Source: an uncultured bacterium (GTDB lineage: Bacteria; Zixibacteria; MSB-5A5; CAIYYT01). From it: a stretch of 64,000 bases of DNA. The stretch is from assembly GCA_963726455.1 (NCBI GenBank), contig CAVSCK010000005.1, forward strand, positions 192,001-256,000, in the 5' to 3' direction. Every line of letters begins with the position of its first letter. Position 1 is the stretch's first letter. Below are positions 1-37,307 of this stretch, piece after piece. The notes under the pieces were generated by a model. It worked only from the letters and a program-made list of their open reading frames with translations, did no database searches and was not told where the DNA came from. The translations under genes and the position numbers were made by a program.

Positions 1-238
1 TCAGTGAATCAGACAATATGGCCAGACTACGCTTCAGTTGAGGATATTCCTCAAAGGATGCTGGTGATAATTTGGGAAGGTCAAAGTTGGATTGAACTAC
101 TGCTTCAGACATTGGTGTCGAGTTTACGTTGTGTCTGAAGATTTTATACAAAGAGAAGAAAGTCCAACCGATAGACACAATCAGAACGACTGAAAGAAGG
201 ACATCCAAGACTCTGCGAAGTCCAACTGGCAATTCCAT
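1..238 (-). CDS. Membrane-anchored hypothetical protein, first cargo gene of cassette L4 (partial, runs off window)
   Basis: ATG at 238 with GGAGG RBS; reads MELPVGLRRVLDVLLSVVLIVSIGWTFFSLYK... with an N-terminal TM segment, open to position 1. An in-frame upstream ATG at 286 adds MAVARTGPFQFMSGGS. Confidence 0.65.
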   Translation of the reverse strand, partial: MELPVGLRRVLDVLLSVVLIVSIGWTFFSLYKIFRHNVNSTPMSEAVVQSNFDLPKLSPASFEEYPQLKRSLAILSDSL

Positions 239-380
239 ACTGCCTCCACTCATGAACTGGAAAGGCCCAGTTCTTGCCACAGCCATTTTGCATGCCGCCT
301 GCCACTGACAGGTTCTGTCAGTACCAAGTCAGATAACCTGGAAACATCGGCAGTAGAGTTCTGCCACTGCCAGAGTGTTA

Positions 381-396
381 TGCAAGCAGTGTGCCG
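381..396 (-). promoter_or_regulatory. sigma54 -24/-12 promoter (cassette L4)
   Basis: Minus strand CGGCAC-ACTGC-TTGCA matches TGGCAC-N5-TTGCW. Confidence 0.8.
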
Positions 397-484
397 GATC
401 AGAGTTTGAACAGTCAAAATCTGCTAAGTAAAGATATGTAAAGAAGATAACGAATCATTGTGAGAGTGTCCGCCTGCGGAAAAA

Positions 485-627
485 TTCGCGAATTATTCGC
501 GAATTCGCGAAAAGTTCGCGAAACATTACGAGGATTTGCGAGTCGATATTATAAGGTGCTGTCTTTCAATCAATTAGTCATTCGCAGTTTTCGCGAACTC
601 TTTACGAGGATTTGCGAGTCGATGTTC
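485..627. promoter_or_regulatory. Putative enhancer (UAS): tandem TTCGCGAA palindromes, two copies of the 26-bp box, IHF-like site
   Basis: TTCGCGAA at 485, 496, 504, 515 and about 590; TTACGAGGATTTGCGAGTCGAT at 526 and 602; TTTCAA-TCAA-TTA near 564; 90-230 bp upstream of the sigma54 promoter. Confidence 0.65.
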
Positions 628-660
628 CAGCCGACGGGATGTTACTCCCGTCGGCAGGAA
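625..660 (-). terminator. Conserved 3' stem-loop after dockerin gene (cassette L3 end)
   Basis: TTCCAGCCGACGGGA-tgttac-TCCCGTCGGCAGGAA; repeated at 1852 and 4932; no clear U-tract. Confidence 0.5.
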
Positions 661-674
661 TATATGCGATGCAG

Positions 675-953
675 TTATTGGCAAATGCCGCAGTGTGGTT
701 GCGCACCGCCGGCAAAGGCATATTGAACTATGTAGGCGACGTCGGATATGTCCCTTTGTGCATCGACCAAGATGGTACTAGGTGGAAAAATGTGAAGCAC
801 TCGGAAGTCCAAGCGTTCCATTAGAATCACCTTCGTGGTAAGTTCGTCGATCGATTCCGTACGAAATTCGAGGTAGTTCATCCGGGTGAAGGCGCCACAT
901 GTCGCTGTAGCAAAGAGAAAGCACGCGACAACGGCCAAAAATCTCCAATTCAT
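675..953 (-). pseudogene. Internally deleted paralog of the dockerin-tailed metalloprotease (signal peptide + short N-terminus + last half of dockerin)
   Basis: MNWRFLAVVAC signal; NYLEFRTESIDE...RVLHIFPPS resembles GYIELNVGSFSE...RPIHVFPPS of 1902..3980; joined to the identical tail DISDVAYIVQYAFAGGAQPHCGICQ. Confidence 0.75.
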
Positions 954-993
954 TTTGTCCTTCCCCTTGGGGAGGCGCGGGCATTCCTTTGCT

Positions 994-1377
994 CTACGGG
1001 TTGTCACGAACGAGCTGGAAATCAACACCCAGCATGGTGCCCGAAGTCGCTCCAAGCGTAGTGCTCTTTGTCTGGTAACCGCTCTTTCCGGCGTATACCT
1101 GCCGATTTATCCTGCCAAAGCTAACCCAGGAATATCTTCCGCTGCTGTCCGCGTACACTCGATTGAAATGAATCGTATCCGAGGCAGATTCACTGAACCA
1201 ACCACCGACCAGGGGGGTGCCTCCGAGACTATCCGTGATTGTGCCCGAAACATTGGTTCCACCATGATCGCCCTCGCTGCATGACTCAATTGTCAACAGA
1301 GACAGCGTCGCAGAAACCAACAGGATGACGAGAATGCCTGCGCCTGTTCCAATGCTTAAAAGGTGTTCCGTTTTCAT
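994..1377 (-). CDS. Exported/lipoprotein with carboxypeptidase-regulatory-like (prealbumin-like) domain
   Basis: ATG 1377 after GAGGGAGG; hydrophobic leader then VSGTITDS...YADSSGRY...AGKSGYQTK; paralog of 4002..4361. Confidence 0.7.
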   Translation of the reverse strand: MKTEHLLSIGTGAGILVILLVSATLSLLTIESCSEGDHGGTNVSGTITDSLGGTPLVGGWFSESASDTIHFNRVYADSSGRYSWVSFGRINRQVYAGKSGYQTKSTTLGATSGTMLGVDFQLVRDNP

Positions 1378-1509
1378 TGTTAACCTCCCTCTCAGAGTGT
1401 GAGACTTATGATCCTTCATCGCGCGGGGGCAAGGAGCGACCCTTGCGTTACGTTCTGCTTTTGGGCCCCTCCGCGATCACTGACGTTTGAATCCCTGATT
1501 TGTGCAACG

Positions 1510-1581
1510 TCAACGATCCCTGGCGCACAACGCCGGAGGGGCTCGTTGTATTCCGAATAAGTTTGTGAACAAGTCACTCAT
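1510..1581 (-). CDS. Leader peptide MSDLFTNLFGIQRAPPALCARDR (RAPP motif)
   Basis: ATG preceded by GAGGGGAAGG RBS; 23 codons plus TGA; homologs at 8101 and 4625. Confidence 0.6.
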   Translation of the reverse strand: MSDLFTNLFGIQRAPPALCARDR

Positions 1582-1684
1582 TTTGCCTTCCCCTCGTCAC
1601 TGACAGGATCTGACAGTGAACGCTGTTCGAGCGCTACCCTGGAAAAATTGGCTTTGGCGTTCAGCCACCATCAGCAGGATGTAG

Positions 1685-1700
1685 TGCAACAAGTGTGCCG
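1685..1700 (-). promoter_or_regulatory. sigma54 -24/-12 promoter (cassette L3)
   Basis: CGGCAC-ACTTG-TTGCA on minus strand. Confidence 0.8.
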
Positions 1701-1851
1701 AGTGGGAGTTTGAACTGTCAGATTTTGCTAAGTGCGAGTTTGCAAAGAGGCCCACCAGCGCATAGCTCCTCCGCTGTTCCAGACTCCAAGATATGCAAGT
1801 CGTGGAGTCGTCGTAACACTTTTTTACTGGAAAGCGTGCGGAGAGTCAACG

Positions 1852-1887
1852 TTCCTGCCGACGGGATGTTACTCCCGTCGGCAGGAA
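1852..1887 (-). terminator. Conserved 3' stem-loop (cassette L2 end)
   Basis: Perfect 15-bp stem TTCCTGCCGACGGGA/TCCCGTCGGCAGGAA just downstream of the stop at 1902. Confidence 0.55.
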
Positions 1888-1901
1888 TATATGCTAAGCA
1901 G

Positions 1902-3980
1902 TTACTGGCAAATGCCACAATGTGGCTGCGCACCGCCAGCAAAGGCATATTGAACTATGTAGGCGACGTCGGAAATATCAACCGTGCAGTCGCCATTGGC
2001 GTCGCCTAGCCCAGTTGGTATCTGACAATCGCCCGGTTCCGGCCCCCCGGCGAAGATGTACTGGACAAGATAGACGGCGTCGGAAATATCAACTGAACCG
2101 CTGCCGTCGGCATCCCCGCAATAGGTGCACTGATAGTTGAAAGTGTAATTGATCGTCTGGGACTTGCCGCCATCAGGTCGCCAGGCATAAAACCGAGCCG
2201 TGTAAGTTTGATCCTGCGGCAGGAACATCATCGGCAAGGACTGCGGATAGTTCGATGCGTACAGCTTGTCCCAGATCGGTCGAGCAACGAGGTTATTTTG
2301 AGAATCGTATATGAAGCAGCGCACGTACGCCCAACTCTCAGTGAGCTTCCAATTTAGGAAGCCGTTGGAGTAGCTGATGTCAGTGAACACTGGGGATATC
2401 GATGGATCGGAGGAATTCAACCTGATCGTAAACGGCGAGCCATTGTTGATAGTTACATAATAGATCTGACCTGTGACGCAGGTCTGGTCGTCGTAATTGT
2501 GACCGTCCCAAATCGCGAAACTTTGGGTCGGGCTCACTCGGAACATATTGTCATCGGTAACAGATATCAGATTGACGAAATCCATGTCCAGCGTGTAGAT
2601 ACGCACCAGGTCGCCAGGATTCACATTTTGAATCGACTGCCAGCCGCCGTTGTTGGGATCGATAGGATCGCAAACGCCGTCGCCGTCAGAATCTCGCCAG
2701 CCAAGGTGTGCCAACGTGCTCGGGCACGCCCCCGAATAGTCCGACGTCTTCATAACACAGTACAAACATGGCTCACAGCAGTGTTGGCAATTAGCGTTAG
2801 GAACTTGAAGATAGCCGAACCTGTCCTGGCAAGAGGAATTGCCGCTGCAGTCACCCCCTTGGCGTTCATATTCGTCTGGTGCACGAAACAGGTGCGAGAT
2901 CTCGTGAGACAGTCGTTCGTGCAACCGAACCGCGCTCGCGTCAGTCATGTATCCCGATACCATCAGGGGGCCCATATAGTCCCTGTGTTCGGTGCCCGAC
3001 ATGACACAGAAGCCAGAGGCCCCGGCAGGGAAACCGTCCAGAAAGTAACGGGGCGACGGTTGGTTGACGTTTCTGACAACGTACGCAATTATGCCCCAGT
3101 TGGCTTGCAAGTCCTTCCTTAAGGAATTGACCATGCCAAAGGCTCCGTCCCACTTATCAGCGTAGCCAAAATTCTCCTGAATCTGGCTTAACCAACCGAA
3201 GCAGTAGGACGCCAAGGGGTAACAAAGACTCAGAGGAGTCTGATTGTTAGGGTAGAGATAGGCATCGCAGGGTTCATTAATCATTATGGGCACTCCGTCT
3301 TGGATGTTGAACGAATGGATTCCCGCTGCCCGGCTTTCTCTATAGATCCAGCACAGGCGAGCGTTGTTTTCGGTCGCCAACTCCCACAGGAAGTGGCAAG
3401 CTTCCACAGTCTCGACCAGAACACTGTCTAGCTCATAACTTGTCCAGTCTTCATCATGACTTTCACTCTCCGGAGTGATGAGCCATACTGCCACCTTTCC
3501 CATCAGATAATTCGCTGTGAACATGTTGGCGGGAGAGGGCACGGGAAAACTTGCGACTGGCACCGGCAGAAGTAGCGAATCCGCGAGAGTCGGTGGAGAA
3601 CCTTCATCACGAAAATTAGACGATTTCGACAACGAAGGTTCATTACTGTCTCTGATACAAAGAAAACTTTCGTACGCACCGCGATTCGATGCCCTTTGGG
3701 TCATTTGCTTGCCGCCAACGAACACAGATATTTTGTCGAACTGCGACACTGCTGTTCGAGGATCAACGCTGAGAATCTCGACAATCGCAGCTCCAGCTGC
3801 TTCGGCCGAGGGTGGGAACACATGAATCGGTCGCAAACCCCCAATTTCGAGCTGCTCAAGAACGGAATCCATTTCGGAAAAGCTCCCCACATTTAATTCT
3901 ATATAGCCTAAGTTGCTGCCAATTGCGCAGGCCGCAATGAAACAGATGGACGCTGCCATGACTGCCATTGATCGCAACAT
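1902..3980 (-). CDS. Secreted zinc metalloprotease (HExxH...D metzincin-like) with FlgD-like Ig domain and C-terminal dockerin
   Basis: Signal peptide; RLSHEISHLFRAPDEY and CVM Met-turn; AIWDGHNYDDQ...GQIYY; CGDADGSGSVDISDAVYL / GDANGDCTVDISDVAY dockerin repeats. Confidence 0.85.
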   Translation of the reverse strand: MLRSMAVMAASICFIAACAIGSNLGYIELNVGSFSEMDSVLEQLEIGGLRPIHVFPPSAEAAGAAIVEILSVDPRTAVSQFDKISVFVGGKQMTQRASNRGAYESFLCIRDSNEPSLSKSSNFRDEGSPPTLADSLLLPVPVASFPVPSPANMFTANYLMGKVAVWLITPESESHDEDWTSYELDSVLVETVEACHFLWELATENNARLCWIYRESRAAGIHSFNIQDGVPIMINEPCDAYLYPNNQTPLSLCYPLASYCFGWLSQIQENFGYADKWDGAFGMVNSLRKDLQANWGIIAYVVRNVNQPSPRYFLDGFPAGASGFCVMSGTEHRDYMGPLMVSGYMTDASAVRLHERLSHEISHLFRAPDEYERQGGDCSGNSSCQDRFGYLQVPNANCQHCCEPCLYCVMKTSDYSGACPSTLAHLGWRDSDGDGVCDPIDPNNGGWQSIQNVNPGDLVRIYTLDMDFVNLISVTDDNMFRVSPTQSFAIWDGHNYDDQTCVTGQIYYVTINNGSPFTIRLNSSDPSISPVFTDISYSNGFLNWKLTESWAYVRCFIYDSQNNLVARPIWDKLYASNYPQSLPMMFLPQDQTYTARFYAWRPDGGKSQTINYTFNYQCTYCGDADGSGSVDISDAVYLVQYIFAGGPEPGDCQIPTGLGDANGDCTVDISDVAYIVQYAFAGGAQPHCGICQ

Positions 3981-4001
3981 GCCTCCTTTCGACTTCGCGC
4001 A

Positions 4002-4361
4002 TCATTCAACACGACACAAATAGAAATAGACGCGTGCATCGGCCGTGAGATCTCGGAAATACTCCCGCTTGGAGCGGTACCCGGTGGCCGATGCCCATAG
4101 ATAACGGTTGCGTCCAGGTGTCGTGTACAGATGGAAAGAACCCGAAGTGTTAGTGTATACGGGACTGAAATTTGTGTCCGGTTCACTCTCGTTTCCCCAC
4201 CGAACACAGGCATTTGACATAGGAGTGTCCGTCGCACTGTCTGTCACCACTCCGCTGACGAGTACACTCGGATCGCCAAGGTTCCTACTGTGGCAACCTA
4301 CGGCCAAGACAATGACGGCAAGCGCAAACGCGCTCAACGCAACGATCCTTGATACTTTCAC
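4002..4361 (-). CDS. Lipoprotein with carboxypeptidase-regulatory-like domain
   Basis: GTG at 4361 after GGAAGGAG; lipobox LAVGC; VSGVVTDSATDTP...TNTSGSF...ASATGYRS. Confidence 0.75.
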   Translation of the reverse strand: MKVSRIVALSAFALAVIVLAVGCHSRNLGDPSVLVSGVVTDSATDTPMSNACVRWGNESEPDTNFSPVYTNTSGSFHLYTTPGRNRYLWASATGYRSKREYFRDLTADARVYFYLCRVE

Positions 4362-4624
4362 GACTTTCTCCTTCCAAAAACGTTTCCAACGCACTGTCTT
4401 ATCTTCATCGAGACTTTCCCGGTTTCGACACTTGAGCAGGCATGGGTCCGAGGATGTTAATCCGTAGCGGTTGACTCGGAACCCCGACCCAACTATCCTG
4501 CCCCACTCATCTGGATCCACTATCCCGACGGATACTGGCCCAATGGAAACTAAGTCTCGCCATTGTTACTGACGTTCAATAACTCACTTTGTGGAGTGTC
4601 AGCAACATTTAATTGACACGGTCC

Positions 4625-4675
4625 TCACGGCGGAGCTTTGTTAATTCTGAAAGGAACGGTTATATGTTCAGTCAT
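4625..4675 (-). CDS. Leader peptide MTEHITVPFRINKAPP (KAPP-stop)
   Basis: Same RBS/ATG context as the 1581 and 8172 starts; DNA diverges after the ATG but the peptide keeps T6, F9, I11 and [RK]APP. Confidence 0.6.
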   Translation of the reverse strand: MTEHITVPFRINKAPP

Positions 4676-4930
4676 TTTGCCTTCCCCCCGTCACTGACAG
4701 GATCTGACAGTGGACGGTGTTCGTGCGCTACCCTGGAAAGATTGGCTTTGGCGTTCAGCCACCATCAGCAGGATGTAGTGCAACAAGTGTGCCGAGTCGG
4801 AGTTTGAACTGTCAGATTTTGCTAAGTGCGAGCTTGCAAAGATGTTAGCCAAGCATCGACATAATCGTCGTCATACCAATTTCTCGCGAAAAGTTCGCGA
4901 AACCTTACGAGGATTTGTGAGTCGATGTTC
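4672..4930 (-). repeat. UAS + promoter repeat, cassette L2 copy
   Basis: Near-identical to 8169..8445 (fewer TTCGCGAA units); identity stops at the leader-peptide ATG. Confidence 0.95.
4779..4794 (-). promoter_or_regulatory. sigma54 -24/-12 promoter (cassette L2)
   Basis: CGGCAC-ACTTG-TTGCA on minus strand. Confidence 0.8.
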
Positions 4931-4931
4931 C

Positions 4932-4959
4932 TGCCGACGGGATGTTAGTCCCGCCGGCA
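4932..4959 (-). terminator. Conserved 3' stem-loop (cassette L1 end)
   Basis: TGCCGACGGGA-tgttag-TCCCGCCGGCA, a variant of the 625/1852 hairpins. Confidence 0.5.
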
Positions 4960-4977
4960 TTAACATTGAGAATACGG

Positions 4978-6819
4978 CTACAAACAGCTCCCACAGTGTG
5001 GTCGTGCGCCACCGGCAAAGATGTACTGTATCAAGAAGACAGCGTCGGAGATGTCGACAGCGCAATCGCCGTTGGCATCGGCAAGGCCGGCCTGTACCTG
5101 GCAATCGCGTGGTGCGGCGCCACCAGCGAAAATGTATTGGATGATATACACAGCGTCCGCGATGTCGACGGTGAGATCGTCGTTGGCATCGCCACAGCTC
5201 TTGCAGGCGATCATCACCGCACGCTGCTCGTTGACACGTCCCCAGCCGACCTGGTCATTGACGCGGCGGTATTCATTATCGGGCACGCCGTAGTGCTGCC
5301 GTTCGCACGACTTGCGAAGGATGTCGTACATGACCTCCGCCGAATCCTGATAGTGCCACCCCATCAGCCAAGGATCACGCACCAGCAGTCGGGCAGCGAT
5401 CCCCGCCACCACCGGTGCCGCGAAGGAAGTGCCGGTCAGGTGGCAAGCGTAATTTTCGTTTTCGTCACATGTATTACCCGACGTGCTAGGATTCAAACCA
5501 CCATAGCCCATCAAGTCGAGCGACCACAGATCCTTGCCCGGCGCCAGCAGATCAAGTGTCGCGCCTGTTGCCGAGCCGTCAACGCGATCATCCTTGTTGT
5601 CGCTCATGCCGACCCCAAGTACGTACCGTGAACTCGCTGGATACTCCACCCAACCTTTGTTCCCCGCAGCGACAATTGTGATCTTGCCGTTGCGATACAT
5701 CTCCCCCAACCTCCGCTCAATTTCGGAACTGTAGTTGATGCTCCAGGTGATGCACACGATTTGTGCCGCACCCGGCTGATAGCACACCCAGTCGAGGGCG
5801 CGAAGCCACACCGAGTTACTCGTCATACCGTACCAGTCCACGATCTTCACCGGCATTATTCTGGGCCGCGACTCCGTCCCCGCAAGTCCCACGGCGTTGT
5901 TTGTGTAGGCTTCCAGGATTCCTAAAACTGCCGTGCCGTGCCAGCAAATAGGATTCGAGTAGGTGCATTCGGTCGACGGATCATCGTCCGGCGGTCCGCC
6001 TGCCGACCAGCCCGCAGCATCGTATGGATGCCACCAGCAGTTGGACCGGAAGTCCTCGTGTGTCATCTGGTAGCCGGCATCCAAGACGGCTACGATAGGA
6101 GGCGTTAAGTTCGGATCGGAATACGGTTGCGCCGCTTCCCAGTCGATATCGGCCCCGGGCGTGCCGCCATTCTGACCGGTGTTTTTGAATTGCCACTGCT
6201 CTCCAAAGTAGGGATCGTTGGTGTTGGCATGCGCAGGATAGGTCAGATTCGGCTCCGCAACAATGCACAGACCGGTGTTGTTGAGGTTGCGTGCCAACTG
6301 CGTTATGTCGTAGGAATATCTGCCATTGTAGCTCACAATATGTGTCACCGTCAGACTCTCTTGGAAAGTCTCGGTGACCGTAAGACTGTAGATATGTTCA
6401 GTGGAGACAATCTGTTCCGGCGTCGTGGTCGGTTTCCAAGTAATAATCAAAGAGTTGTCCAACTTGCCACGGTCATCATAGACGGTCCTGACCACGGGGT
6501 TGACCATCAAGATGGTATCATTCATTCTTAGCGAACTCATGACGTCCTGAAGATCATAGCCCGTCTCGATGCCGAATACGAAGAACTGATTCGGGGCCTC
6601 TTCAATGTCGAAGGTGTCACTGAGAAAGGGCTGGGCAATGGCAAACTCAGCCGCGTTCGGCCCGGGGATGTTTGGATCGAAGCGAATCTCCACGAGATTA
6701 GTATAAGTCTCAAAATAGAGCGGACTGCCGTCCAAATCGTAATACCAATAGTTGCCCTGAGCATGCAGAGGAGCCGCCAACAGGGCCAGCAGGAACATGA
6801 CTGCAATTATCTTTTTCAT
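4978..6819 (-). CDS. Secreted S8 subtilase with C-terminal dockerin
   Basis: MKKIIAVMFLLALLAAPLHA signal at 6819; catalytic motifs VAVLDAG, HGTAVLG, GTSFAAPVVAG; CGDANDDLTVDIADAVY / DANGDCAVDISDAVF dockerin. Confidence 0.92.
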   Translation of the reverse strand: MKKIIAVMFLLALLAAPLHAQGNYWYYDLDGSPLYFETYTNLVEIRFDPNIPGPNAAEFAIAQPFLSDTFDIEEAPNQFFVFGIETGYDLQDVMSSLRMNDTILMVNPVVRTVYDDRGKLDNSLIITWKPTTTPEQIVSTEHIYSLTVTETFQESLTVTHIVSYNGRYSYDITQLARNLNNTGLCIVAEPNLTYPAHANTNDPYFGEQWQFKNTGQNGGTPGADIDWEAAQPYSDPNLTPPIVAVLDAGYQMTHEDFRSNCWWHPYDAAGWSAGGPPDDDPSTECTYSNPICWHGTAVLGILEAYTNNAVGLAGTESRPRIMPVKIVDWYGMTSNSVWLRALDWVCYQPGAAQIVCITWSINYSSEIERRLGEMYRNGKITIVAAGNKGWVEYPASSRYVLGVGMSDNKDDRVDGSATGATLDLLAPGKDLWSLDLMGYGGLNPSTSGNTCDENENYACHLTGTSFAAPVVAGIAARLLVRDPWLMGWHYQDSAEVMYDILRKSCERQHYGVPDNEYRRVNDQVGWGRVNEQRAVMIACKSCGDANDDLTVDIADAVYIIQYIFAGGAAPRDCQVQAGLADANGDCAVDISDAVFLIQYIFAGGARPHCGSCL

Positions 6820-6889
6820 TTTGTTAGACTCCGATTCTAGATTTTCGGACCGATGCGCATCTGGTAAGGCAGACGCTGTAGGTCCGGGG

Positions 6890-7978
6890 TTATGACTTTT
6901 CGTTACTCTTCTTGAGATTGGTGTCAACCACCAGCACCGATCCGGGCATGCGACCAGCCATTCGGCCCGTGGCGACATAAGCTTTCTCACCTGTGGGTGA
7001 AAAAATGATGTCGGAACCGGCGAGCGGAACGAGTGGATTAGGACCGTAGCCGAAGAGCGAGATACCCTGGCGATAGGCGCCGCTGGCGGCATCGAAAACA
7101 TAGATCGTTCCCGAGTCCCAGTCCCAGCCGGGTATGCCAGGATCCGTCATCCAGACTTCGCTGCCGTCAGGCGATACAGCGATCCCGCCGAATCGGCCCA
7201 GCGTCGGATAAGCCCAGATTACGCTTCGGCTGTTGAGATCGTAGCCCATTACGAAGCTCCGTCCGAGATCGTTGAACCACCGAAGGCACTTGAAGTAGAG
7301 CCGGTTTCGAGTGAAATCAATGCACGACCCAATCGGCTGGATAGTGTCTCCGGGCACGAGGTGCATGGGCAGCAACTCCAGCTTGCGGTCAAGGTAATCG
7401 TAGCTGTAGTAATCGAAACCGAGACTACGGTCACCGTTGCCATAGAGTAAGTGGCGTGCTTCGTCCACCCACAGGCCGTAGAACCCGACGATCGTGTCGA
7501 TTCGCTCCACCGCAAAGGATGGCAGATTCATAATGTACAACTCCCCCTGCATACTATTGCCGAGCGCCAGTCCTCGTTGGTTGTCGATGACCGGCAAGAA
7601 ATAGCGGGGCAGTTCAGTCACAAACTGGAGTGTTTGCGCATCGTAGACACGAGTTCGGGCATTGGCAAAGTCGACTGGGTTATAATCGACGATCAGATAG
7701 CGACCATCACCTGTCACTTCCAACCCGGCTGCGTCCCCGAATGACTTGGCTTCCGTAATGCTGTCCACCACAGAGTCACTTTCCATGTCGATCTTGTAGA
7801 CGTTGGACAGAGCTATGTTGAACTCCGAATAGTACAACCACCCCTTGTAATGCTGCACGACTGGATCGGTCGGACAGGTGGGGCAGTCTTTGGAGCAGCC
7901 GGCGGCCATCAGGGCGACCAACAGCAACAGCGCCGTCAGTGAACCGCGGACGCTTCCGAGCAATAACACTTTCTTCAT
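6890..7978 (-). CDS. YVTN/YncE-type beta-propeller lipoprotein (3' end probably frameshifted; likely true end KVITPDLQRLPYQMRIGPKI, stop at 6837)
   Basis: Lipobox MAAGC; GIAVSPDGSEVWMTD, GTIYVFDA, IIFSPTGEKAYVA, GSVLVVDT propeller blades. Confidence 0.8.
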   Translation of the reverse strand: MKKVLLLGSVRGSLTALLLLVALMAAGCSKDCPTCPTDPVVQHYKGWLYYSEFNIALSNVYKIDMESDSVVDSITEAKSFGDAAGLEVTGDGRYLIVDYNPVDFANARTRVYDAQTLQFVTELPRYFLPVIDNQRGLALGNSMQGELYIMNLPSFAVERIDTIVGFYGLWVDEARHLLYGNGDRSLGFDYYSYDYLDRKLELLPMHLVPGDTIQPIGSCIDFTRNRLYFKCLRWFNDLGRSFVMGYDLNSRSVIWAYPTLGRFGGIAVSPDGSEVWMTDPGIPGWDWDSGTIYVFDAASGAYRQGISLFGYGPNPLVPLAGSDIIFSPTGEKAYVATGRMAGRMPGSVLVVDTNLKKSNEKS

Positions 7979-8100
7979 GACATTCTCCCTTCTTAGCTGT
8001 AACTTACCTGCGAATTGTCAGCAGAGCGCAAACTTGCGTTACGTTCTGCTTTTGGGCCCCTCCGCGATCACTGACGTTTGAATCCCTGATTTGTGCAACG

Positions 8101-8172
8101 TCAACGATCCCTGGCGGACAACGCCGGAGGGGCTCGTTGTATTCCGAATAAGTTTGTGAACAAGTCCTTCAT
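8101..8172 (-). CDS. Leader peptide MKDLFTNLFGIQRAPPALSARDR (RAPP motif)
   Basis: ATG after GGGGGAAGG RBS; RAPP codons overlap a GC-rich hairpin. Confidence 0.6.
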   Translation of the reverse strand: MKDLFTNLFGIQRAPPALSARDR

Positions 8173-8274
8173 TTTGCCTTCCCCCGTCACTGACAGGATC
8201 TGACAGTGGACGGTGTTCGTGCGCTACCCTGGAAAGATTGGCTTTGGCGTTCAGCCACCATCAGCAGGATGTAG

Positions 8275-8290
8275 TGCAACAAGTGTGCCG
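8275..8290 (-). promoter_or_regulatory. sigma54 -24/-12 promoter (cassette L1)
   Basis: CGGCAC-ACTTG-TTGCA on minus strand. Confidence 0.8.
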
Positions 8291-8560
8291 ACTGAGAGTT
8301 TGAACTCTCAGATTTTGCTAAGTGCGAGTTTGCAAAGATGTTAGCCAAGCATCGACATAATCGTCGTCATACTAATTTCTCGCGAAATATTCGCGAATTC
8401 GCGAAAAGTTCGCGAAACCTTACGAGGATTTGCGGCTCCATGTTCTTCTGACCGAGAGGCGGATTCACCGGTTTCGGTGAGGTGATTTCCAGGGGCGTCT
8501 TTGACGATATAAAATGCAGAGACGAAACTAAACAATTTGGAGCGTTATACGTTTTTTCTA

Positions 8561-8588
8561 TTGACAGCACGCTTCACAAGTTTATATT
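8561..8588 (+). promoter_or_regulatory. sigma70-type promoter of the peptide/activator operon
   Basis: TTGACA-N16-TATATT with AT-rich upstream tract, 50 bp before ATG 8639. Confidence 0.65.
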
Positions 8589-8638
8589 CGCATTTAGGAT
8601 AGCAAAAAAAGAGCAAGACTCAAACCCAGAGTTTAACT

Positions 8639-8992
8639 ATGATCAAAAGGTTGATGTTATTGGCGACCTTATCGGTCCTCCTCGGGGTGTTGGTACTTTC
8701 CGTGCCGCTCGTGGCCGCTGACAGTGCGAGACCGCTGAAGGGACAGACGACGGTGGTCAAGGCACAACCGGTCACAGCGGGACCCTCGGTTCAAGCAGTT
8801 CCAGCAGCAGGCGCATCATTCCTGCAATTCCTGAGATTCAATATTGCGCGCTGGCTGGGTATTCCCGGTCCGGTAGTCGCGCCAAAGCCGCCGGTCAAGG
8901 ATGGACCGCAGAAGAGCAGTGGCAACTGGATAATTGACCCAAGATATATTAGTGCACCAATGAGGGATAACGGGGGACATGAGCCAACTTAG
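8639..8992 (+). CDS. Small secreted protein (117 aa), candidate signalling pro-peptide
   Basis: Sec signal ending VAA/DS; Pro/Ala/Val-rich linker, amphipathic FLQFLRFNIARWLG, polar tail; 18 bp before the activator gene. Confidence 0.7.
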   Translation: MIKRLMLLATLSVLLGVLVLSVPLVAADSARPLKGQTTVVKAQPVTAGPSVQAVPAAGASFLQFLRFNIARWLGIPGPVVAPKPPVKDGPQKSSGNWIIDPRYISAPMRDNGGHEPT

Positions 8993-9010
8993 TGATAAGG
9001 TATCGCTCTA

Positions 9011-11241
9011 ATGATGATAAGTATTGAGCGTACATTTGCTCAAGTCCACGCTTTGATTGAAAGGGCGGACTATGCCGAGGCGGAGAAGCTTCTTGCACCG
9101 GTGAGAAGTGAGTGCAAAACTCGGAGGGACGCCACGTCGCTTTCCGAAATGTACTTCTGTTACGGAAGATGTTACTATTACACTGGCAGGTATACCAAGG
9201 CCCTAGCTCGTCTGAGAGCGGCTGTCCGCTTATGCCAGGATTCAGCAAATCACAGACTCTTTGCGCGAGAAAAGGTGCTTCTGGGCGTGATTATGCGATC
9301 CCAGGGTAGACAACGAGATGCCGTAGAAGCATTTACAGAAGCTTTTGCTGCGCGCAAGAGGGCGAGGGACTATGACGGACTCTTTGTCCCCCTTGTCCAT
9401 CTCGCACTTTCCCACTTTTTAGGCGGAGATTTGCATCAAGCGCGGTCCGTCATTGGCGAGGCGCTTTCATACACTCTGAAATACAACGGGGTCTCGGATC
9501 TGCGCCTCTGCCTTCTCAATCGTTTTCTTTTCGAGATGTTCTCTGGCGAGCTTGCCAAGTGCCAGGAGACGCTTGCCGAAGTACGTCTACAGGAGCTCGG
9601 CGTCGTGGATTCGGCGCATGTCAGCTTACACTCCGGCCAATTATTCCTCTTCAGAATGCAGAGTGCCGAAGCGAGCGCTCTGATCAAAGAGGCGATGAAT
9701 ACTTACGCTCGAAACCAGATTCGCAGAGACTACGTCGTCTGCCTTGAGTTCCTCGGCATGAACGAGTACTTCGCGGGCAACTACAAGAAAGCGAAAGCAT
9801 ACTACCAACAGGTTCTCGAGATGCCGGAGCCGACGGCCTCGGCGGTGGCGCAGACACTCAGAATGCTGGCGGATGTCTACATAGCGGAAGGCAATTGGCA
9901 GAAAGCGACCGAGACGGCCGCCAAAGCTGAACAGGCGATTACGAAGATCAACGAACGCATCGAACTGGGCGCTTTGTGGCGGGCACTGGCGCAGATTGCC
10001 GAACATGACGGTGATGCGGCTGCGGCGCGCGAGTCCTGATACAGAAGTCGCTGGAACTGTTGCAGCAGTGCGGTGCGCGCTACGAGTTGGCGCTCAGCCA
10101 TGTGGCCGCCGGAATGTCAGCCGCGTTCACAATGGAGGAACGCCGCAATCATCTGGAACTGGCCCGGACGCTGTTCACCGAAATGGGCGTGCCGAAACGC
10201 GTGGCGCAGGTCGAGAAAGCAATTGCCGGGCTGAATCGTGCGGATAAGAAAACGGCTCGCGACGGTAAAGCCAGGATTGAGGCGCCGACAATTATCACCC
10301 GCAGCCCCATGATGCTGTCAATCCTGGAGCAGATCGCGATGGCGCGTGAGTCCGATCTCACGGTGTTAATCACGGGTGAAACGGGAACCGGCAAGGACCT
10401 GATCGCGGAGTATATTCATTACACTTCCCGGCGCGCTGACAAACCGTTTCGTAATGAGAACACTGCCGCCATCACGGAGTCGCTGCTGGAGACGGAATTG
10501 TTTGGCCATTGTAAAGGCGCCTATTCCGGAGCCGACTATGACAAGCCGGGACTGATCGAGTCGAGCGACGGCGGGACGTTCTGCTTCAACGAGATCGCCG
10601 AAATTCCACCGGCGACGCAGGCGAAGCTTTTGCAGGTGCTGGAAAGCAAAAGTGTGCGCCGCCTGGGCGAGGTCGACAAGCGACCGATTGACGTACGCTT
10701 TGTGGCGATGACCAACCAGAATCTGCCGGCTCTGATTGCCCGCCATGAGTTCCGCGAAGACTTATATCACCGGCTGCAGCAGTTGACCTTCCAGTTGCCA
10801 CCGTTACGCGATCGCCGGGAAGATATCACGCCGCTGTTCGAGCATTTCCTGTTATTGGCTGGATTCAGAAAGGAAGGATTGCCGAGCGCGCAACATCCGC
10901 TGGTGGTGGATCGGCTGCGTGAACTGGACTGGCCGGGCAACGTGCGCGAATTGCGCAATTTCTCCGGACGGGTGGCGGCATTGGCTCCCGACGGCGACAC
11001 CAATAAGATCCTGCGCCTCATTGAGGATCAGGCCAGAGAACACGCGAAGAAAGCTGCATCCGACGACAACAACGGCAATGGCCGCCAGACTCCGTACCGC
11101 GAATCTGACGCCGAAGCGCTGGATACGGAAGAAATGGCGGAATGTCTGGAGCGTTGCCGGGGCAATCTCTCGGCCACCGCCCGCGAACTCAACATTCCCG
11201 AGTCCACCCTGCGCTATCGCCTCCGCAGGCAGGGCAAGTAG
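9011..11241 (+). CDS. TPR-domain sigma54-dependent activator (TPR-AAA+-Fis HTH), split by a one-base frameshift at about 10035
   Basis: 9011..10039 is TPR-like helical repeats; 10060..11241 has GETGTGKD, ETELFGHCKGAYSGA, FREDLYHRL, WPGNVREL and HTH LSATARELNIPESTLRYRL; the downstream frame is open across the junction (LIQKSLELLQQCG). Confidence 0.88.
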
Positions 11242-11488
11242 CCCGTCGCTGAATCAGACTTAATCAAATTCCACGCACGTCATCCTTCTTCGGACAAAGA
11301 GTCGTCCGGCAAGAGTCGCTGATCGCTGTCTCGCGAACGTGGAGCCGCAAATCCTCGTAAAGAATTCGCGAATTCGCGAACGTTTCGCTAATTTTTCGCG
11401 AATCTGCGAGTCGGGGTTTGCGAACAAACTTGCACTCCCGGTTTTGTCATTCAACGAGTTAGCAAATTAGTTCCATCACATCCTGAAT

Positions 11489-11504
11489 TGGCACGCCGGT
11501 TGCA
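11489..11504 (+). promoter_or_regulatory. sigma54 -24/-12 promoter (cassette R1)
   Basis: TGGCAC-GCCGG-TTGCA, perfect consensus; IHF-like ATTCAA-CGAG-TTA at 11449; TTCGCGAA array at 11365-11402. Confidence 0.88.
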
Positions 11505-11549
11505 TTACCGTACTGCAACTGGGCACGGAGTCCATGTCAGGAGAGGAAA

Positions 11550-11633
11550 GTGGCAGGAAGAAAGATTGATACACACGCTGAGGGTACGAACCTCAAAACC
11601 ACACAACTTGCTCTTTTCAGGCGACCCCCGTGA
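11550..11633 (+). CDS. Leader peptide MAGRKIDTHAEGTNLKTTQLALFRRPP (RRPP-stop)
   Basis: GTG after AGGAGAGG RBS; the PP-stop codons form the 5' arm of hairpin 11627-11663. Confidence 0.5.
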   Translation: MAGRKIDTHAEGTNLKTTQLALFRRPP

Positions 11634-11765
11634 TGCCCCGCTATCCAAACCTGGTGTCACGGGTAGCACAAGCGACCGGCAGCCACCAAAGCTGCCGGTT
11701 GCTGGAAATCAAAGTAAGTAAAGGTTGAATTTGATGGAATTGTTTACATTCATAGGAGGCAGAAA

Positions 11766-12497
11766 ATGAAGAAGATTATCAGCGGAATCATGATCGTCGT
11801 CTGGTTGGCGACGTTGGTGGGAGGTTGTCAAAGCGGCAATCAGGTTCCGAACAAGGTAGCCGAGCCGCAAAGTTCAGCAATTGAGTCAGGCAACAGCAAG
11901 ATCATGGTTGATCCAAGTCAGGAGAAACATTCCATACTCATGGCGAATCTGGCGTTGCCCGCAGTGGCGAACTTTACCGACACGCTGGAAGCACAGGGCT
12001 ACGGGTACCGGGAAAATAATTCAGTCATCCTGATCGAAAATCACTATGATGACGAGTGGCGAGACGCCGTGCAACCGGCAAACACAGATCAAAGTCTCAA
12101 GCGCTCTCCGAACAGGAGGATCATCGGCGCCGACACTTTAGTCTGGCAAGTTTTCGAGAATGCGGCACTCGATTCGAGCAAACATACGGCGATCATAACG
12201 GGTTACCATGAAGGCCAAGTCAAGAGTGTCTTCGTCGAAGCGAATGTGACTGTCGAGAACCACTCACTCATTCGGGGTATGGTCTTAGATGGAAATGGGT
12301 CCACAATGGATGATCCCCTTGTTTTCGGCTTTTGGACCAACTGGGGTACTTGTGTCGCGGTGGCCACGGCTCGCTGCCTCGTTACTTGTGGGTTATCGGG
12401 ACCACTATACCTACATTGTCTCGCGGGGTGCGAAGGTTGGGCCATCACCTTCTGCGCTATTGGGGCATACTTAACTTGCTTGATAACTAACAGATAG
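11766..12497 (+). CDS. Lipoprotein with hydrophobic Cys-rich C-terminal tail (bacteriocin-precursor-like)
   Basis: AGGAGG RBS; lipobox VGGC; tail C-x7-C-x3-C-x9-C-x3-C-x7-C-x7-C. Confidence 0.8.
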   Translation: MKKIISGIMIVVWLATLVGGCQSGNQVPNKVAEPQSSAIESGNSKIMVDPSQEKHSILMANLALPAVANFTDTLEAQGYGYRENNSVILIENHYDDEWRDAVQPANTDQSLKRSPNRRIIGADTLVWQVFENAALDSSKHTAIITGYHEGQVKSVFVEANVTVENHSLIRGMVLDGNGSTMDDPLVFGFWTNWGTCVAVATARCLVTCGLSGPLYLHCLAGCEGWAITFCAIGAYLTCLITNR

Positions 12498-12520
12498 TAG
12501 ATGAGAAGGAATCACATCTA

Positions 12521-12772
12521 ATGAATTGGCTCGCTTCAAAGAAGAACGGCATCAGGATTTCGACTGCTGTCTTTTGTCTCACGGGTGTGCTGTTGCTCGC
12601 CGTAGCTCGGCCCTGGCTGGCCTGGGGTATAGCCGGGCTCGCAGCAGGCCTTGTCAGCTTACCTTCTGCATGCGGGGGAAAGTTCACATTTTGGAAAGTT
12701 TTGGGAATCCTGTCAGCCGAGAGTATTGGGGCGGGTCTGCTTGCCCATTTAATCTATTTGGTAACCCGTTAG
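12521..12772 (+). CDS. Small 3-TM membrane protein (immunity-like)
   Basis: 83 aa, hydrophobic, AAGGA RBS, directly after the Cys-rich lipoprotein; paralog of 16188..16445. Confidence 0.7.
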   Translation: MNWLASKKNGIRISTAVFCLTGVLLLAVARPWLAWGIAGLAAGLVSLPSACGGKFTFWKVLGILSAESIGAGLLAHLIYLVTR

Positions 12773-12908
12773 AAGCGACAACATCGGATTTGCACCGCAG
12801 GATGTGTCACAGGGTCGGAGTGACGTTACTTCGACCCTATTGATCATAAACATGGCCGTCGCCGAAGCGCGGCTCGATTACCGAACTTAGATTTTCTGCT
12901 TAAGTTCA

Positions 12909-12969
12909 GTAGGTCGAAACCCCTGGTGGAATTAAGTGTTCTCTACAACTCCCTTTCCGGGGTTTCGAC
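12909..12969. repeat. REP-like inverted repeat
   Basis: GTAG-GTCGAAACCCC...GGGGTTTCGAC; similar at 24488..24548 and a half copy at 31859..31869. Confidence 0.5.
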
Positions 12970-13196
12970 ACTTTCGTAACTACACTCCTTACGATTATCC
13001 ATCCCACAACGAAAACTCGTAGTCTAAGCACAGTACCTCACCGAACGTGGACTCGCAAATCCTCGTAAAGAATTCGCGAATTCGCGAACGTTTCGCTAAT
13101 TTTTCGCGAATCTGCGAGTCGGGGTTTGCGAACAAACTTGCACTCCCGGTTTTGTCATTCAACGAGTTAGCAAATTAGTTCCATCACATCCTGAAT

Positions 13197-13212
13197 TGGC
13201 ACGCCGGTTGCA
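13197..13212 (+). promoter_or_regulatory. sigma54 -24/-12 promoter (cassette R2)
   Basis: TGGCAC-GCCGG-TTGCA. Confidence 0.88.
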
Positions 13213-13257
13213 TTACCGTACTGCAACTGGGCACGGAGTCCATGTCAGGAGAGGAAA

Positions 13258-13341
13258 GTGGCAGGAAGAAAGATTGATACACACGCTGAGGGTACGAACC
13301 TCAAAACCACACAACTTGCTCTTTTCAGGCGACCCCCGTGA
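13258..13341 (+). CDS. Leader peptide ending FRRPP-stop (copy 2)
   Basis: Identical to 11550..11633. Confidence 0.5.
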   Translation: MAGRKIDTHAEGTNLKTTQLALFRRPP

Positions 13342-13473
13342 TGCCCCGCTATCCAAACCTGGTGTCACGGGTAGCACAAGCGACCGGCAGCCACCAAAGC
13401 TGCCGGTCGCGGGAAATCAAAGTAAGTAAAGGTTGAATTTGATGGAATTGTTTACATTCATAGGAGGCAGAAA

Positions 13474-14350
13474 ATGAAGAAGATTATCAGTGGAATCATG
13501 ATCGTCGTCTGGTTGGCGACGTTGGTGGGAGGTTGCAACCAAACCAGTAGGCCCAGTTCGTCGCAAGAGACTGCCGTTGCTCAATTTGAACTCGAATCTG
13601 CGAAAGTTCGGGTCACTCATTTCGCTTACGATTCCCAACAAGGAAGCTTCCAAGTCAATATGCAGTTAGCTTGGTCTGGTGGCGAAGTTACGAAGAACGT
13701 CGCTGCCTTTACAGCGCAGCGGTTGAATGGTGCGTGGAACGGTGCCAGTGTGAGTCTTCGCGACGAGCGTGGGAAGCTTCTTTGGGAATACTTTATCGAT
13801 TGGGACATCAATGATACCACTTGGATAAGAATTCAGGAAAGAACCGACAGAGACGCGCTCTCGATCAAGGAGATTCAGACCCCAATTCGACCACCGAGGA
13901 ATACGTCTTCAATGGAGTGCGGAAGAATTTCACTTGTCCGAAGTATTTGTCGGAAAGTCTGTCAAACGCCAAGCCCGCGACGTTGTCCGAGGCCGATCAG
14001 AGTTTATTGGAGGAGCTGAAGAGTCAGTTTCTTTCGTTCTATAATCCGGACAACAGCCTGTCGTCCAATCGTTACGGCCTTTTGCTGAACGAGCTGCTTA
14101 GCAATGACGGCTTTAAGACCTGGATGAGGAGTTCTGTCGTAGGTGCCGGCACTGCTTCGCACCAGGAAGGCCTGGCGTTATTCACGGACAAGTCAGAGAA
14201 GACAAAGGACTGGAATTGCACTCTGGCCGACGCCTGTTCTACTTTTAGGTGCTCGGGAACAGGCTTAGCAATCCATTGTGTGTTCCCTGCATCGGGTTGA
14301 GTATTGCATGCCTCATTGCAGATATCGTAGGCCTAATTCAGGACAAATAA
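13474..14350 (+). CDS. Second lipoprotein with Cys-rich hydrophobic tail; two apparent frameshifts (about 13870 and 14255)
   Basis: Same signal peptide as 11766 but unrelated body; frames join to ...WNCTLADACSTFRC...SNPLCVPCIGLSIACLIADIVGLIQDK, stop at 14350. Confidence 0.65.
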
Positions 14351-14418
14351 CGGAAACAAGTGCAGTCCAAGAAGATGTTAACCGTATCTTCGGATACTAG
14401 ATTTTCAGGAGATTACAG

Positions 14419-14589
14419 ATGGGAATTGTGCTTTTTCTACTAGCTGCCTTGATCCTAATGATTGGCGGTGTATGGCTAATGTTTGAGTCGCTCAAGTACA
14501 AGAAGCCTGATTCACCTCGCTACCCAGTTCACATATCCGGCCTGGTTCACTCCGGTCTGGAAACAAAGAGATGGTTCACTCCCACTTGA
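14419..14589 (+). CDS. Small membrane protein (immunity-like, possibly frameshifted)
   Basis: AGGAG RBS; MGIVLFLLAALILMIGGVWLMFESLKYKKP... Confidence 0.5.
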   Translation: MGIVLFLLAALILMIGGVWLMFESLKYKKPDSPRYPVHISGLVHSGLETKRWFTPT

Positions 14590-35118: not shown

Positions 35119-35213
35119 AACAGAACAGTTCTAAACAAAATTGACCGGGACAGTAAGCGAGCCACGAGGCCATGTGACGCTCGACTGGGTTCTTGTGCAC
35201 AGGAGGTAAAGCA

Positions 35214-36548: not shown

Positions 36549-36938
36549 TTATAGTTCTCGATCGTCGGAAGTACAATTTAGCAGGCCGGTATTGTCGATC
36601 ACCCAGGTATCGGGAGCGGGATCGCTGTCCAATCCGGGAGCCGGCGCGTCAGCGGTCGCGACGAATGTCGCCGGCGTAATCACAACGCTGTAGTTGTAAC
36701 GCCGATTAGCGGTCAGATCAACACCCAACAGCGTCAGATCGTTACAATACTGGCTGTGTTCCTGGAAGTAGCCGTTTTCGAGCGTGTATATCTGCTTCAA
36801 TATCCCCTGTGCTTCTGCCTGCTTTGCTTTGATCGATGTGCTCATGAATCTTGGTATGGCCAGCGTGGCAAGAACGCCAACGACTATGACTACGATCGCC
36901 AGTTCGAGCAGCGTAAAACCTTTGCTGTCATTCTTCAC
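36549..36938 (-). CDS. Type IV pilin (N-methylation motif)
   Basis: GTG 36938 after GGAGGAG; KGFTLLELAIVVIVVGVLATLAIP. Confidence 0.92.
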   Translation of the reverse strand: MKNDSKGFTLLELAIVVIVVGVLATLAIPRFMSTSIKAKQAEAQGILKQIYTLENGYFQEHSQYCNDLTLLGVDLTANRRYNYSVVITPATFVATADAPAPGLDSDPAPDTWVIDNTGLLNCTSDDREL

Positions 36939-36976
36939 GGTATCTCCTCCATTCCAGTGTTGTTGGCAGTCGATCA

Positions 36977-36992
36977 GGCAAACGGTGTGCCG
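36977..36992 (-). promoter_or_regulatory. sigma54 promoter of the pilin gene
   Basis: CGGCAC-ACCGT-TTGCC, 39 bp before the start. Confidence 0.7.
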
Positions 36993-37149
36993 AGTGCGGT
37001 TCGCAAGGATAAGCATGTGTGGCGGAGTCACTTGACAGTTCGGTTATGCCAGTCTTGGGCGCTGCGCTGACGGCAAGTACTTGCAGTACTTTGCGTACAA
37101 ATCCTCTCGACAAATCGGCTGAGTACACGGGCTCGCAGCAATTTCTGCC

Positions 37150-37235: not shown

Positions 37236-37307
37236 GGAGGCATTATTGTGCACTAAGGGCGTGAAGTGGATTTACGCCCGGACGTGGAATTGACTACTGG
37301 AGGCATC

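Follow-up and report, generated by a model that had tools for sequence, protein, structure and literature searches.

The analysed stretch, hereafter the window, comprises 64,000 nucleotides (nt; C5:192001-256000) of contig CAVSCK010000005.1 from an uncultured soil bacterium of the phylum Zixibacteria (GCA_963726455.1; genome of 3.64 Mb in five contigs, rated 100% complete), and it opens with a self-contained sigma54 gene switch. At the centre of this switch, a near-consensus sigma70-like promoter (TTGACA-16-TATATT, 8561..8588, plus strand; 11/12 positions matching) drives a two-gene operon. Its first gene codes for a 117-amino acid (aa) protein with a Sec-type signal peptide (8639..8992, +), and the second for an activator combining tetratricopeptide repeats (TPR), an AAA+ ATPase domain, and a helix-turn-helix (HTH) domain of the HTH_8 family; 18 nt separate the stop of the small gene from the activator ATG at 9011. 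Six sigma54 promoters face outward from the operon into cassettes encoding exported proteins, including an S8 protease, an HExxH protein, CarboxypepD_reg-like proteins, and lipoproteins. A preliminary description of the window, made from its letters alone, had proposed the secreted peptide gene 18 bp before the activator, the six outward promoters, a motif array shared by five of them, and the presence of lptFG. All of these were located in the sequence, with the pattern GGCAC-N5-TTGC at each of the six promoters, clusters of the octamer TTCGCGAA upstream of all but the promoter at 1686, and lptF and lptG at window 54194-56613.

Comparative genomic analysis showed that the small gene and the TPR-activator are, as judged by gene order, obligate partners in this lineage, as are their counterparts of two paralogous types. 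Twenty loci of the type present in the window (type A) were fetched around homologues of the TPR part, and a small open reading frame (ORF) of 100-137 aa with an N-terminal signal-like segment was found directly upstream on the same strand in 19/20, the twentieth starting 72 nt from a contig end and so not being assessable. An upstream small signal-peptide ORF was likewise present in 4/4 further type-A loci. The check put forward in the preliminary description, namely that a small signal-peptide gene should precede homologous activators, was therefore borne out in 23/23 assessable type-A loci and also in types B and C. The genome holds ~20 bacterial enhancer-binding proteins (bEBPs); all three with TPR (3/3) are preceded by a small signal-peptide gene, compared to none of the 17 without TPR (0/17, by a crude script). 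Both paralogous activators lie outside the window, with small ORFs (112-113 aa) 2-13 nt upstream: the type B TPR-bEBP (734 aa, C5:320347-322551) is preceded by a 113-aa signal-peptide ORF containing DHPWQDD, and the type C TPR-bEBP (973 aa, C4, locus 1447220-1450492) follows a 112-aa ORF with the predicted mature N-terminus VDHPWDD. In relatives, the upstream small ORF was identified in 20/20 type B-like and 19/20 type C-like loci. Type C is the most widespread of the three pair types, its small-protein profile matching in 64/151 sampled genomes of the phylum and 41/88 genera. A reverse test from 20 small-protein matches in other families of the phylum found a 955-982-aa bEBP immediately downstream in 20/20, which removes the bias of always starting at the activator. 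In all, about 80 loci of three paralog types showed the pairing across this uncultured diderm phylum.

The 117-aa protein starts with a K/R-rich segment, which leads through a hydrophobic stretch to a V-A-A/D junction with small residues at -3/-1, followed by an amphipathic helix containing W, a D-G-P-x-K-S element, and the C-terminal RDNGG-HEPT. Given the positive N-terminus, the hydrophobic core, and the small residues at -3/-1, the body of the protein should lie outside the cytoplasm. It has no Pfam or NCBIfam match, and a word-index homologue search with the single sequence returned no match, whereas a profile search recovered the family. The profile (22 members) run against 1.84 billion representatives gave 42 proteins at E ≤1e-3, all but three of them 100-134 aa long and the others (93, 39, and 101 aa) being partial matches. 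By sequence, the small protein was detected in 14/41 relatives, all of one family, and the distant loci carry diverged versions. By its conservation, the small protein thus represents a genuine family that is narrow and full-length.

Conservation within the small proteins differs by pair type. Apart from the initiator, types B and C have no invariant columns other than the P-W of HPW(D/Q)DD, a motif present in 17/20 type B small ORFs and 19/19 of type C, often 1-3 residues past the predicted signal-peptidase site in type C and ~12-20 residues past it in type B. Type A conserves the amphipathic helix with its W, the D-G-P-x-K-S element, and a motif at the C-terminus. In the final 14 residues of type A, D-x-G-[GWSY] occurs in 48/56 proteins and an acidic motif with W (DEDPWEEQK, DDHDWEEKKN) in 6/56; the deep branches carry DPWEE or DGWDE, and the protein of the window ends in DNGG-HEPT with no W in the motif. 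At the level of aligned sequences, the sole element shared by the three types was shown to be an acidic D-H-[PG]-[WG]-D/E-like motif near a free end. Two other interpretations of the C-terminal region were rejected. A double-glycine leader or sortase-type signal for D-x-G-G fails on the missing hydrophobic or basic segment after it and, for a leader, on its being at the wrong end, and a second transmembrane helix placing the tail in the cytoplasm is disfavoured as the mid-helix is, by eye, too short and carries K, R, and Q. As a separate observation, many type-C proteins (L113-L123, L128, L130, L135, and others) have His at position 3 of the predicted mature N-terminus (VDH, LDH, GEH, DEH), a pattern typical of Cu/Ni-binding sites at the amino terminus; some members of the family lack it, and coincidence may explain it.

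The type-A tail after G-G consists of 3-5 hypervariable residues. Among 20 protein pairs at least 70% identical in the mature body, the mean tail identity was ~0.25 and the tails were identical in one pair. Locus L052 (G012:C5) has three tandem small genes before one activator, with tails DPIV, DEK, and QNVD; nt 1-271 are identical among the copies and the 9-18 differences all fall in nt 272-356. Extra copies of the small gene were also identified in L054 and L057. With the silent sites of the body unchanged beside a rewritten tail, simple relaxation cannot be the cause; something keeps the tails different. These comparisons of sequences support a diversification of the C-terminal tail that resembles that of pherotypes.

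The activator of the window is read in two frames. The first (9011..10039, +) encodes 342 aa of the N-terminal TPR sensor part (TPR_12, E 2.7e-19) and ends at a frame break; the second (10039..11241, +) encodes the last TPR, a linker, the AAA+ domain, the lid, and HTH_8, with Sigma54_activat (PF00158, E 2.8e-57), AAA_lid_14, and HTH_8 (E 7.2e-10) found within 10060-11241. The two frames belong to a single gene with a break near 10037, a point through which the intact orthologues (719-778 aa) read. The TPR sensor array spans ~400 aa with no membrane segment seen by eye, and the ATPase displays Walker A GETGTGK, an L1 loop GAYSGA, and Walker B NE, the Walker A motif being invariant in 17/17 aligned type-A activators. 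The protein displays the hallmarks of a bEBP, namely an AAA+ domain with Walker A, a Fis-type HTH, enhancers with -24/-12 promoters, and an rpoN gene in the genome, and lacks an intact reading frame in this assembly. The TPR-AAA+-HTH composition in the preliminary description held (TPR_12, Sigma54_activat, HTH_8). The only matching sequencing runs were two soil metagenomes (0.07 of the words each, with no RNA run), and they gave identical short contigs at 8770-8920, 9002-9152, and 10938-11159, which leave the frame break uncovered. Type-A activators also appear interrupted or truncated in 3/20 related loci (L049, L051, L054), with ~1.2 kb separating the N-terminal TPR fragment from the remainder in L049.

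The promoter pattern GGCAC-N5-TTGC matched seven times in the window compared to 0.64 expected, and 0/100 shuffles reached seven. Six of the matches are the sigma54 -24/-12 promoters of the switch. On the minus strand are P1 (GGCACACTGCTTGC, 382..395), P2 (1686..1699), P3 (4780..4793), and P4 (8276..8289), and on the plus strand P5 (11490..11503) and P6 (13198..13211). P5 lies 249 nt past the activator stop, and orthologues keep a promoter in that position: TGGCA[CT]-N5-TTGC was found 210-275 nt past the activator stop in 15/20 orthologous loci, and two of the five loci without it stop at a contig edge. The promoter blocks of the window are long repeats of 78-99% identity (226 nt in three copies; 300 nt in two copies, 99%) and, being copies of one another, the six sites should not be counted as independent events. 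The seventh match (36978-36991, -) stands before a type IV pilin-like gene (36549-37031, -) with a GFTLLELAIVV N-terminus. Lacking a TTCGCGAA array, it is probably a sigma54 pilin promoter of the classical class, separate from those of the switch.

The octamer TTCGCGAA occurs 16 times in the window compared to 2.75 expected, in clusters at 485-522 (plus 590), 4894, 8390-8416, 11365-11402, and 13073-13110 that lie 88-127 nt upstream of the -24 GG at five of the six promoters. Alignment of the promoter regions (n=6) revealed a common block of GACTCGCAAATCCTCGTAA followed by the TTCGCGAA array. Enhancer array 1 (485..597) has four copies at 485-522 and one at 590-597; P3 is down to two sites after a short deletion, leaving a reduced enhancer at ~4880-4901, and P2 is the sole promoter of the six with none. 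The array at 8380..8416, identified by motif search and promoter alignment, is common to P4 and the divergent regulator operon. That of P5 (11335..11402; motif search and alignment) consists of GAGCCGCAAATCCTCGTAA and three TTCGCGAA, and that of P6 (13043..13110) belongs to the repeat of 300 nt that matches the P5 block at 99% identity. Arrays of at least three perfect octamers number four in the whole 3.64-Mb genome, all at this locus. An element CAACGAGTTAGCAAA (11452..11466, +), a candidate IHF site by its resemblance to the consensus, lies upstream of the -24 box of P5; similar elements between array and promoter were identified in the window and 13/15 orthologue regions and are absent in L044 and L060, and the genome encodes two HU/IHF-family genes (n=2).

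Across orthologues, the enhancer word changes with the recognition helix of the activator. The helix ESTLRYRLR pairs with TCGCGAA in the window and L061, RTTLxSQLKK with GTGACGAA in most of genus g2, and VTTLKSRLKK with TCGACGAA in L047 and L049, and L060 has a different recognition helix together with CTGCGTAA. As the word tracks the helix by clade, the arrays are most probably the enhancers of the TPR-activator, whose HTH would read the TTCGCGAA arrays. This covariation upholds the local sigma54 regulon under a TPR-bEBP that the preliminary description had outlined. At the type B locus (C5:320004-322551), the activator is followed by TCGCGA-rich repeats and then TTGGCAGAGCGGTTGC ~255 nt past the stop, beyond which ~150 nt without a clear ORF end in a terminator-like hairpin; a small RNA transcribed from a sigma54 promoter would be one possible reading of this downstream element, and another is that the hairpin terminates transcription from both sides, serving the convergent metalloprotease gene too.

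Four outward cassettes were identified on the minus side of the operon and two, with one lipoprotein each, on the plus side. P4 drives a 362-aa lipoprotein of no known family (6890..7978, -), the first gene of an operon ending in a subtilisin-family Peptidase_S8 protease with a dockerin C-terminus (4978..6819, -; S8 E 9.5e-32, Dockerin_1 E 4.4e-7). The protease probably starts with MKKIIAV at 6819, the longest ORF extending to 7101. Lipoprotein and protease are kept together in relatives, in several of them beside the gene pair, and orthologues of the protease adjoin the small-protein/activator pair in L050, L052, L056, and L047. P3 drives a 172-aa CarboxypepD_reg-like protein (4002..4520, -; E 2.3e-6, below the curated cut-off) and then a 692-aa exported protein (1902..3980, -), a probable metalloprotease with the HExxH motif HEISH and a C-terminal dockerin tail (Dockerin_1 E 4.8e-4, below cut-off). 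P2 drives a second CarboxypepD_reg-like protein, exported and of 141 aa (994..1419, -; weak match, E 3.4e-4, below cut-off), followed by a 126-aa truncated remnant (675..1055, -) whose N-terminus and dockerin-like C-terminus resemble the 692-aa protein, of which it appears to be an internally deleted copy. P1 drives a 173-aa protein with an N-terminal hydrophobic segment and no Pfam match, whose gene start is at 2..286 (-) and whose full ORF crosses the window start, and then a 496-aa signal-peptide protein outside the window. On the plus side, P5 drives a 243-aa lipoprotein (11766..12497, +) that matches no known family and has a hydrophobic C-terminus rich in Cys, its homologues lying by the pair in L056, L046, L052, and L061, and P6 drives a second lipoprotein (13474..14300, +) split into two frames (181 aa + 159 aa) where the orthologues are single proteins of ~300 aa. 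A match of the latter to NprX_fam was rejected (E 0.0042, below cut-off, covering the signal peptide only). The secreted proteases announced in the preliminary description were therefore present as the S8 and HExxH proteins, each with a dockerin, while its “bacteriocin-like” label for the lipoproteins found no support, no family matching those proteins. Elsewhere in the window, at 35193-36470 and 37266-40748, more large exported proteins terminate in the dockerin-type double repeat GDANRDG...DISDAVYLI.YIF that the proteases of the regulon also bear, and the organism seems to use it widely as a C-terminal tag.

The TPR part offers a clue to what the activator may sense. A profile of 18 TPR parts searched against solved structures (PDB) matched Pins/LGN (7.8e-14 to 2.8e-12), kinesin light chains (KLC; 3.6e-10 and weaker), and also a bacterial KLC-like protein, AfsR, and MalT; Rap receptors were detected (6t3h, 2.2e-8; RapH, 3.5e-5) and rank below Pins/LGN and KLC. 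The concave groove of the KLC TPR binds W-acidic motifs (TNLEWDDSAI) and C-terminal Y-acidic motifs (PMC6214655). A likeness of the present pairs to W-acidic recognition would be an analogy drawn from the TPR sequence class only. Direct sensing of the small protein could take two routes, in which either a processed fragment returns to the cytoplasm or the receptor sees the precursor before export. In the reading favoured here, the acidic motif would be the ligand of the TPR sensor, lying in its groove as a short linear peptide as W-acidic motifs do in KLC. Because the small protein is predicted to be exported, a processed fragment bearing the motif would have to return to the cytoplasm, where it would switch the ATPase of the activator; the S8 protease of the regulon itself may do the processing and an OPT-family transporter the uptake. 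Such logic would amount to an independently evolved peptide circuit resembling RRNPP systems with a sigma54 output. Re-import is preferred over sensing of the precursor on two grounds: the regulon includes S8 proteases, and the existence of paralogous pairs with variable tails suggests insulated channels. Built on sequence patterns and on the KLC analogy, this peptide circuit with re-import of a fragment is plausible without yet being probable. More doubtful is its extension to the phylum at large, in which Zixibacteria would possess an RRNPP-independent peptide communication, with ~110-aa Sec-exported proteins releasing acidic peptides of the HPWDD type or of D-x-G-G with a variable tail, re-uptake of these peptides, KLC-like TPR-sigma54 ATPases as readers, “pherotype” channels, and proteases as outputs.

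Several observations weigh against the peptide circuit, and many of them are what the rival explanations draw on. Since the activator is frame-broken, the circuit may be inactive in this assembly, and one cargo gene, the lipoprotein at 13474-14300, is frame-broken as well. In the aligned ATPase region (window 10360-10620), Walker B is N-E in place of D-E in 8/17 type-A activators including that of the window, and the L1 loop (GAFTGA) is unusually variable among them (GAYSGA in the window, GSHSRA, GVHSGA, GTYTGA, and others). The locus could on these grounds be a pseudogene cluster that regulates nothing: the activator is split near 10037, the truncated remnant at 675-1055 lies nearby, Walker B is NE, activators look interrupted in L049, L051, and L054 also, and the other 19 bEBP frames of the genome are of normal length, so assembly frame errors are not rife. 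Single-base errors are nevertheless possible in a repeat-rich region of a metagenome-assembled genome, and the promoters, enhancers, and small gene are intact with repeats of 95-99% identity. Intact orthologues have Walker B NE too, and the 393-aa second frame holds both AAA+ and HTH and could act without the sensor, N-terminally truncated bEBPs being known that are active. The broken activator, the split lipoprotein, and the remnant together suggest either decay or assembly trouble in a repeat-rich locus, and a switch that has wholly decayed here is a serious possibility that we still consider somewhat unlikely. A chance or annotation artefact, with the small ORF no gene and the promoter-like sites functionless repeats, is by comparison exceedingly improbable; the promoter regions are mutual copies, so that their number overstates the independent evidence, but the product of the small ORF is conserved over its full length in a protein family, and relatives keep the promoter position and the enhancer logic despite differing sequences.

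The remaining points against the peptide circuit concern the small protein and its path. In the 100%-complete genome, neither PF00496 (the Opp/Dpp-type binding protein) nor POT or SbmA was found, so that the canonical RRNPP import route is missing; possible alternative uptake proteins are the OPT-family oligopeptide transporter and CstA. In a diderm, the peptide must moreover cross the outer membrane or never leave it. The type-A W helix and D-G-P-x-K-S exceed the needs of a simple pro-peptide, three small genes with different tails for one receptor in L052 fit poorly with one-to-one specificity, and the signal peptide was called only by eye and with a crude script. An unlikely, though by no means negligible, alternative is that the small protein is merely co-expressed, as a periplasmic or surface accessory, an inhibitor, or a substrate of the secreted machinery, and that the TPR senses something different, for instance a cytoplasmic protein or a metabolite. 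Such a role would accommodate the several conserved elements beside the tail, the missing Opp system, the three small genes per receptor in L052, and the separate compartments of exported protein and cytoplasmic receptor, and MalT and AfsR, whose TPRs were among the profile matches, are not peptide-pheromone receptors. Against an accessory role, the pairing tracks the TPR-activator and not the cargo, each of the three paralog types having its own small gene and none of the 17 non-TPR bEBPs possessing one. Further, types B and C have one feature that never varies, a W-acidic motif, the kind bound by KLC-like TPRs, and tail differences beside 271 identical nt in L052 would be hard to explain if the tail were functionless. 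The second route of direct sensing corresponds to a secretion checkpoint, in which the TPR would bind the acidic motif of the precursor before export, much as type III secretion chaperones with TPRs hold their substrates, Sec export would remove the precursor, and the activator would gauge export capacity ahead of further cargo synthesis without any re-import. Two genes 18 nt apart in one operon make their products together, all cargo carries export signals, many type-C motifs directly follow the predicted signal-peptidase site, and the problem of the missing Opp disappears; the chaperone-binding regions of type III substrates lie at a comparable N-terminal place. Sec export is, however, constitutive and fast and would make a poor switch, the type-A motif is at the far C-terminus, and paralogous pairs with tail diversification better suit separate channels than one shared export-load signal. 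As we also know of no precedent for Sec substrates in such a checkpoint, we regard it as improbable.

The obligate pairing in about 80 loci points to an unrecognised signal-input module. The known inputs of sigma54-activators are phosphorylation, small ligands, and partner proteins. Compared to the classical bEBPs of the NtrC, NorR, PspF, and XylR classes, the activator shares the order of N-terminal sensor, Sigma54_activat, lid, and HTH_8, together with the enhancer arrays and -24/-12 promoters; it differs in a sensor that is a ~400-aa TPR array paired with an exported small protein, and in the variable L1 loop and Walker B NE. Should the ligand prove to be something other than the acidic motif, the locus still stands as a clear case of a sigma54 regulon organised in cassettes, with HTH and enhancer words co-evolving. 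In this respect it resembles the PEP-CTERM/PrsK-PrsR regulon, in which many short cassettes of exported proteins each have a sigma54 promoter and a shared upstream activator motif, the activator being a two-component response regulator whose partner is a histidine kinase, and PrsT, which has the TPR, being a separate lipoprotein (Haft et al., 2006; PMC1569441). No kinase is present here and the TPR is fused to the activator. In the type III TPR chaperone circuits (IpgC-MxiE, SicA-InvF), a TPR module couples the fate of secreted proteins to the transcription of secretion-related genes. The chaperone there is separate from an AraC-type activator and serves type III substrates in contrast to the Sec substrates here, so the resemblance bears only on the secretion checkpoint. 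Searches of the open-access literature turned up no account of a TPR-sigma54 activator with an exported partner protein.

The KLC parallel consists of a TPR_12-type domain and a partner motif with W flanked by acidic residues (HPWDD, DPWEE), and the acidic C-terminal tail here may be set beside the C-terminal Y-acidic motif of JIP1 (PMC6214655). KLC is a eukaryotic motor adaptor, and homology is claimed only at the level of the TPR repeat class. Should the acidic motif be the ligand, the pairs would represent a bacterial counterpart of W-acidic motif recognition and a directly testable peptide-signalling system in Gram-negative-type cells. They would also provide a compact orthogonal switch of peptide, receptor, enhancer word, and sigma54 promoter, with DNA and peptide specificities naturally diversified.

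The preliminary description had likened the locus to the RRNPP systems (Rap/Phr, NprR/NprX, PlcR/PapR, AimR/AimP), and the resemblance extends to several features. A cytoplasmic TPR receptor gene adjoins a small signal-peptide gene, tails diverge fast between close copies, and Rap structures are detectable with the TPR profile. The candidate signal is at the extreme C-terminus, 3-5 residues from the end, as is that of Phr, and an S8 protease belongs to the regulon here, Phr peptides in Bacillus being matured by S8 proteases. Membership of the RRNPP family did not stand, and the system is an analogue at most, though it may still function in the RRNPP manner. RRNPP proteins by definition carry their effector, an HTH or a phosphatase, at the N-terminus and the TPR at the C-terminus, whereas the order here is TPR, AAA+ sigma54 ATPase, and Fis-type HTH. 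With the phylum wrong, the domain order reversed, the effector different, and no Opp found, the TPR profile is also nearer to Pins/LGN and KLC than to Rap, and the pro-protein of ~110 aa has further conserved motifs. Cytoplasmic TPR receptors for ribosomally made peptides are seen as a hallmark of the Bacillota and their mobile elements, and the host here is from a diderm phylum outside the Bacillota. The RRNPP_detector work is likewise framed on Firmicutes and their mobile elements (PMC10075063). If the peptide communication reading is true, no earlier quorum-type circuit of peptide and TPR would be known from a diderm phylum, nor any with a sigma54 output, and the Zixibacteria pairs would be the first in both respects.

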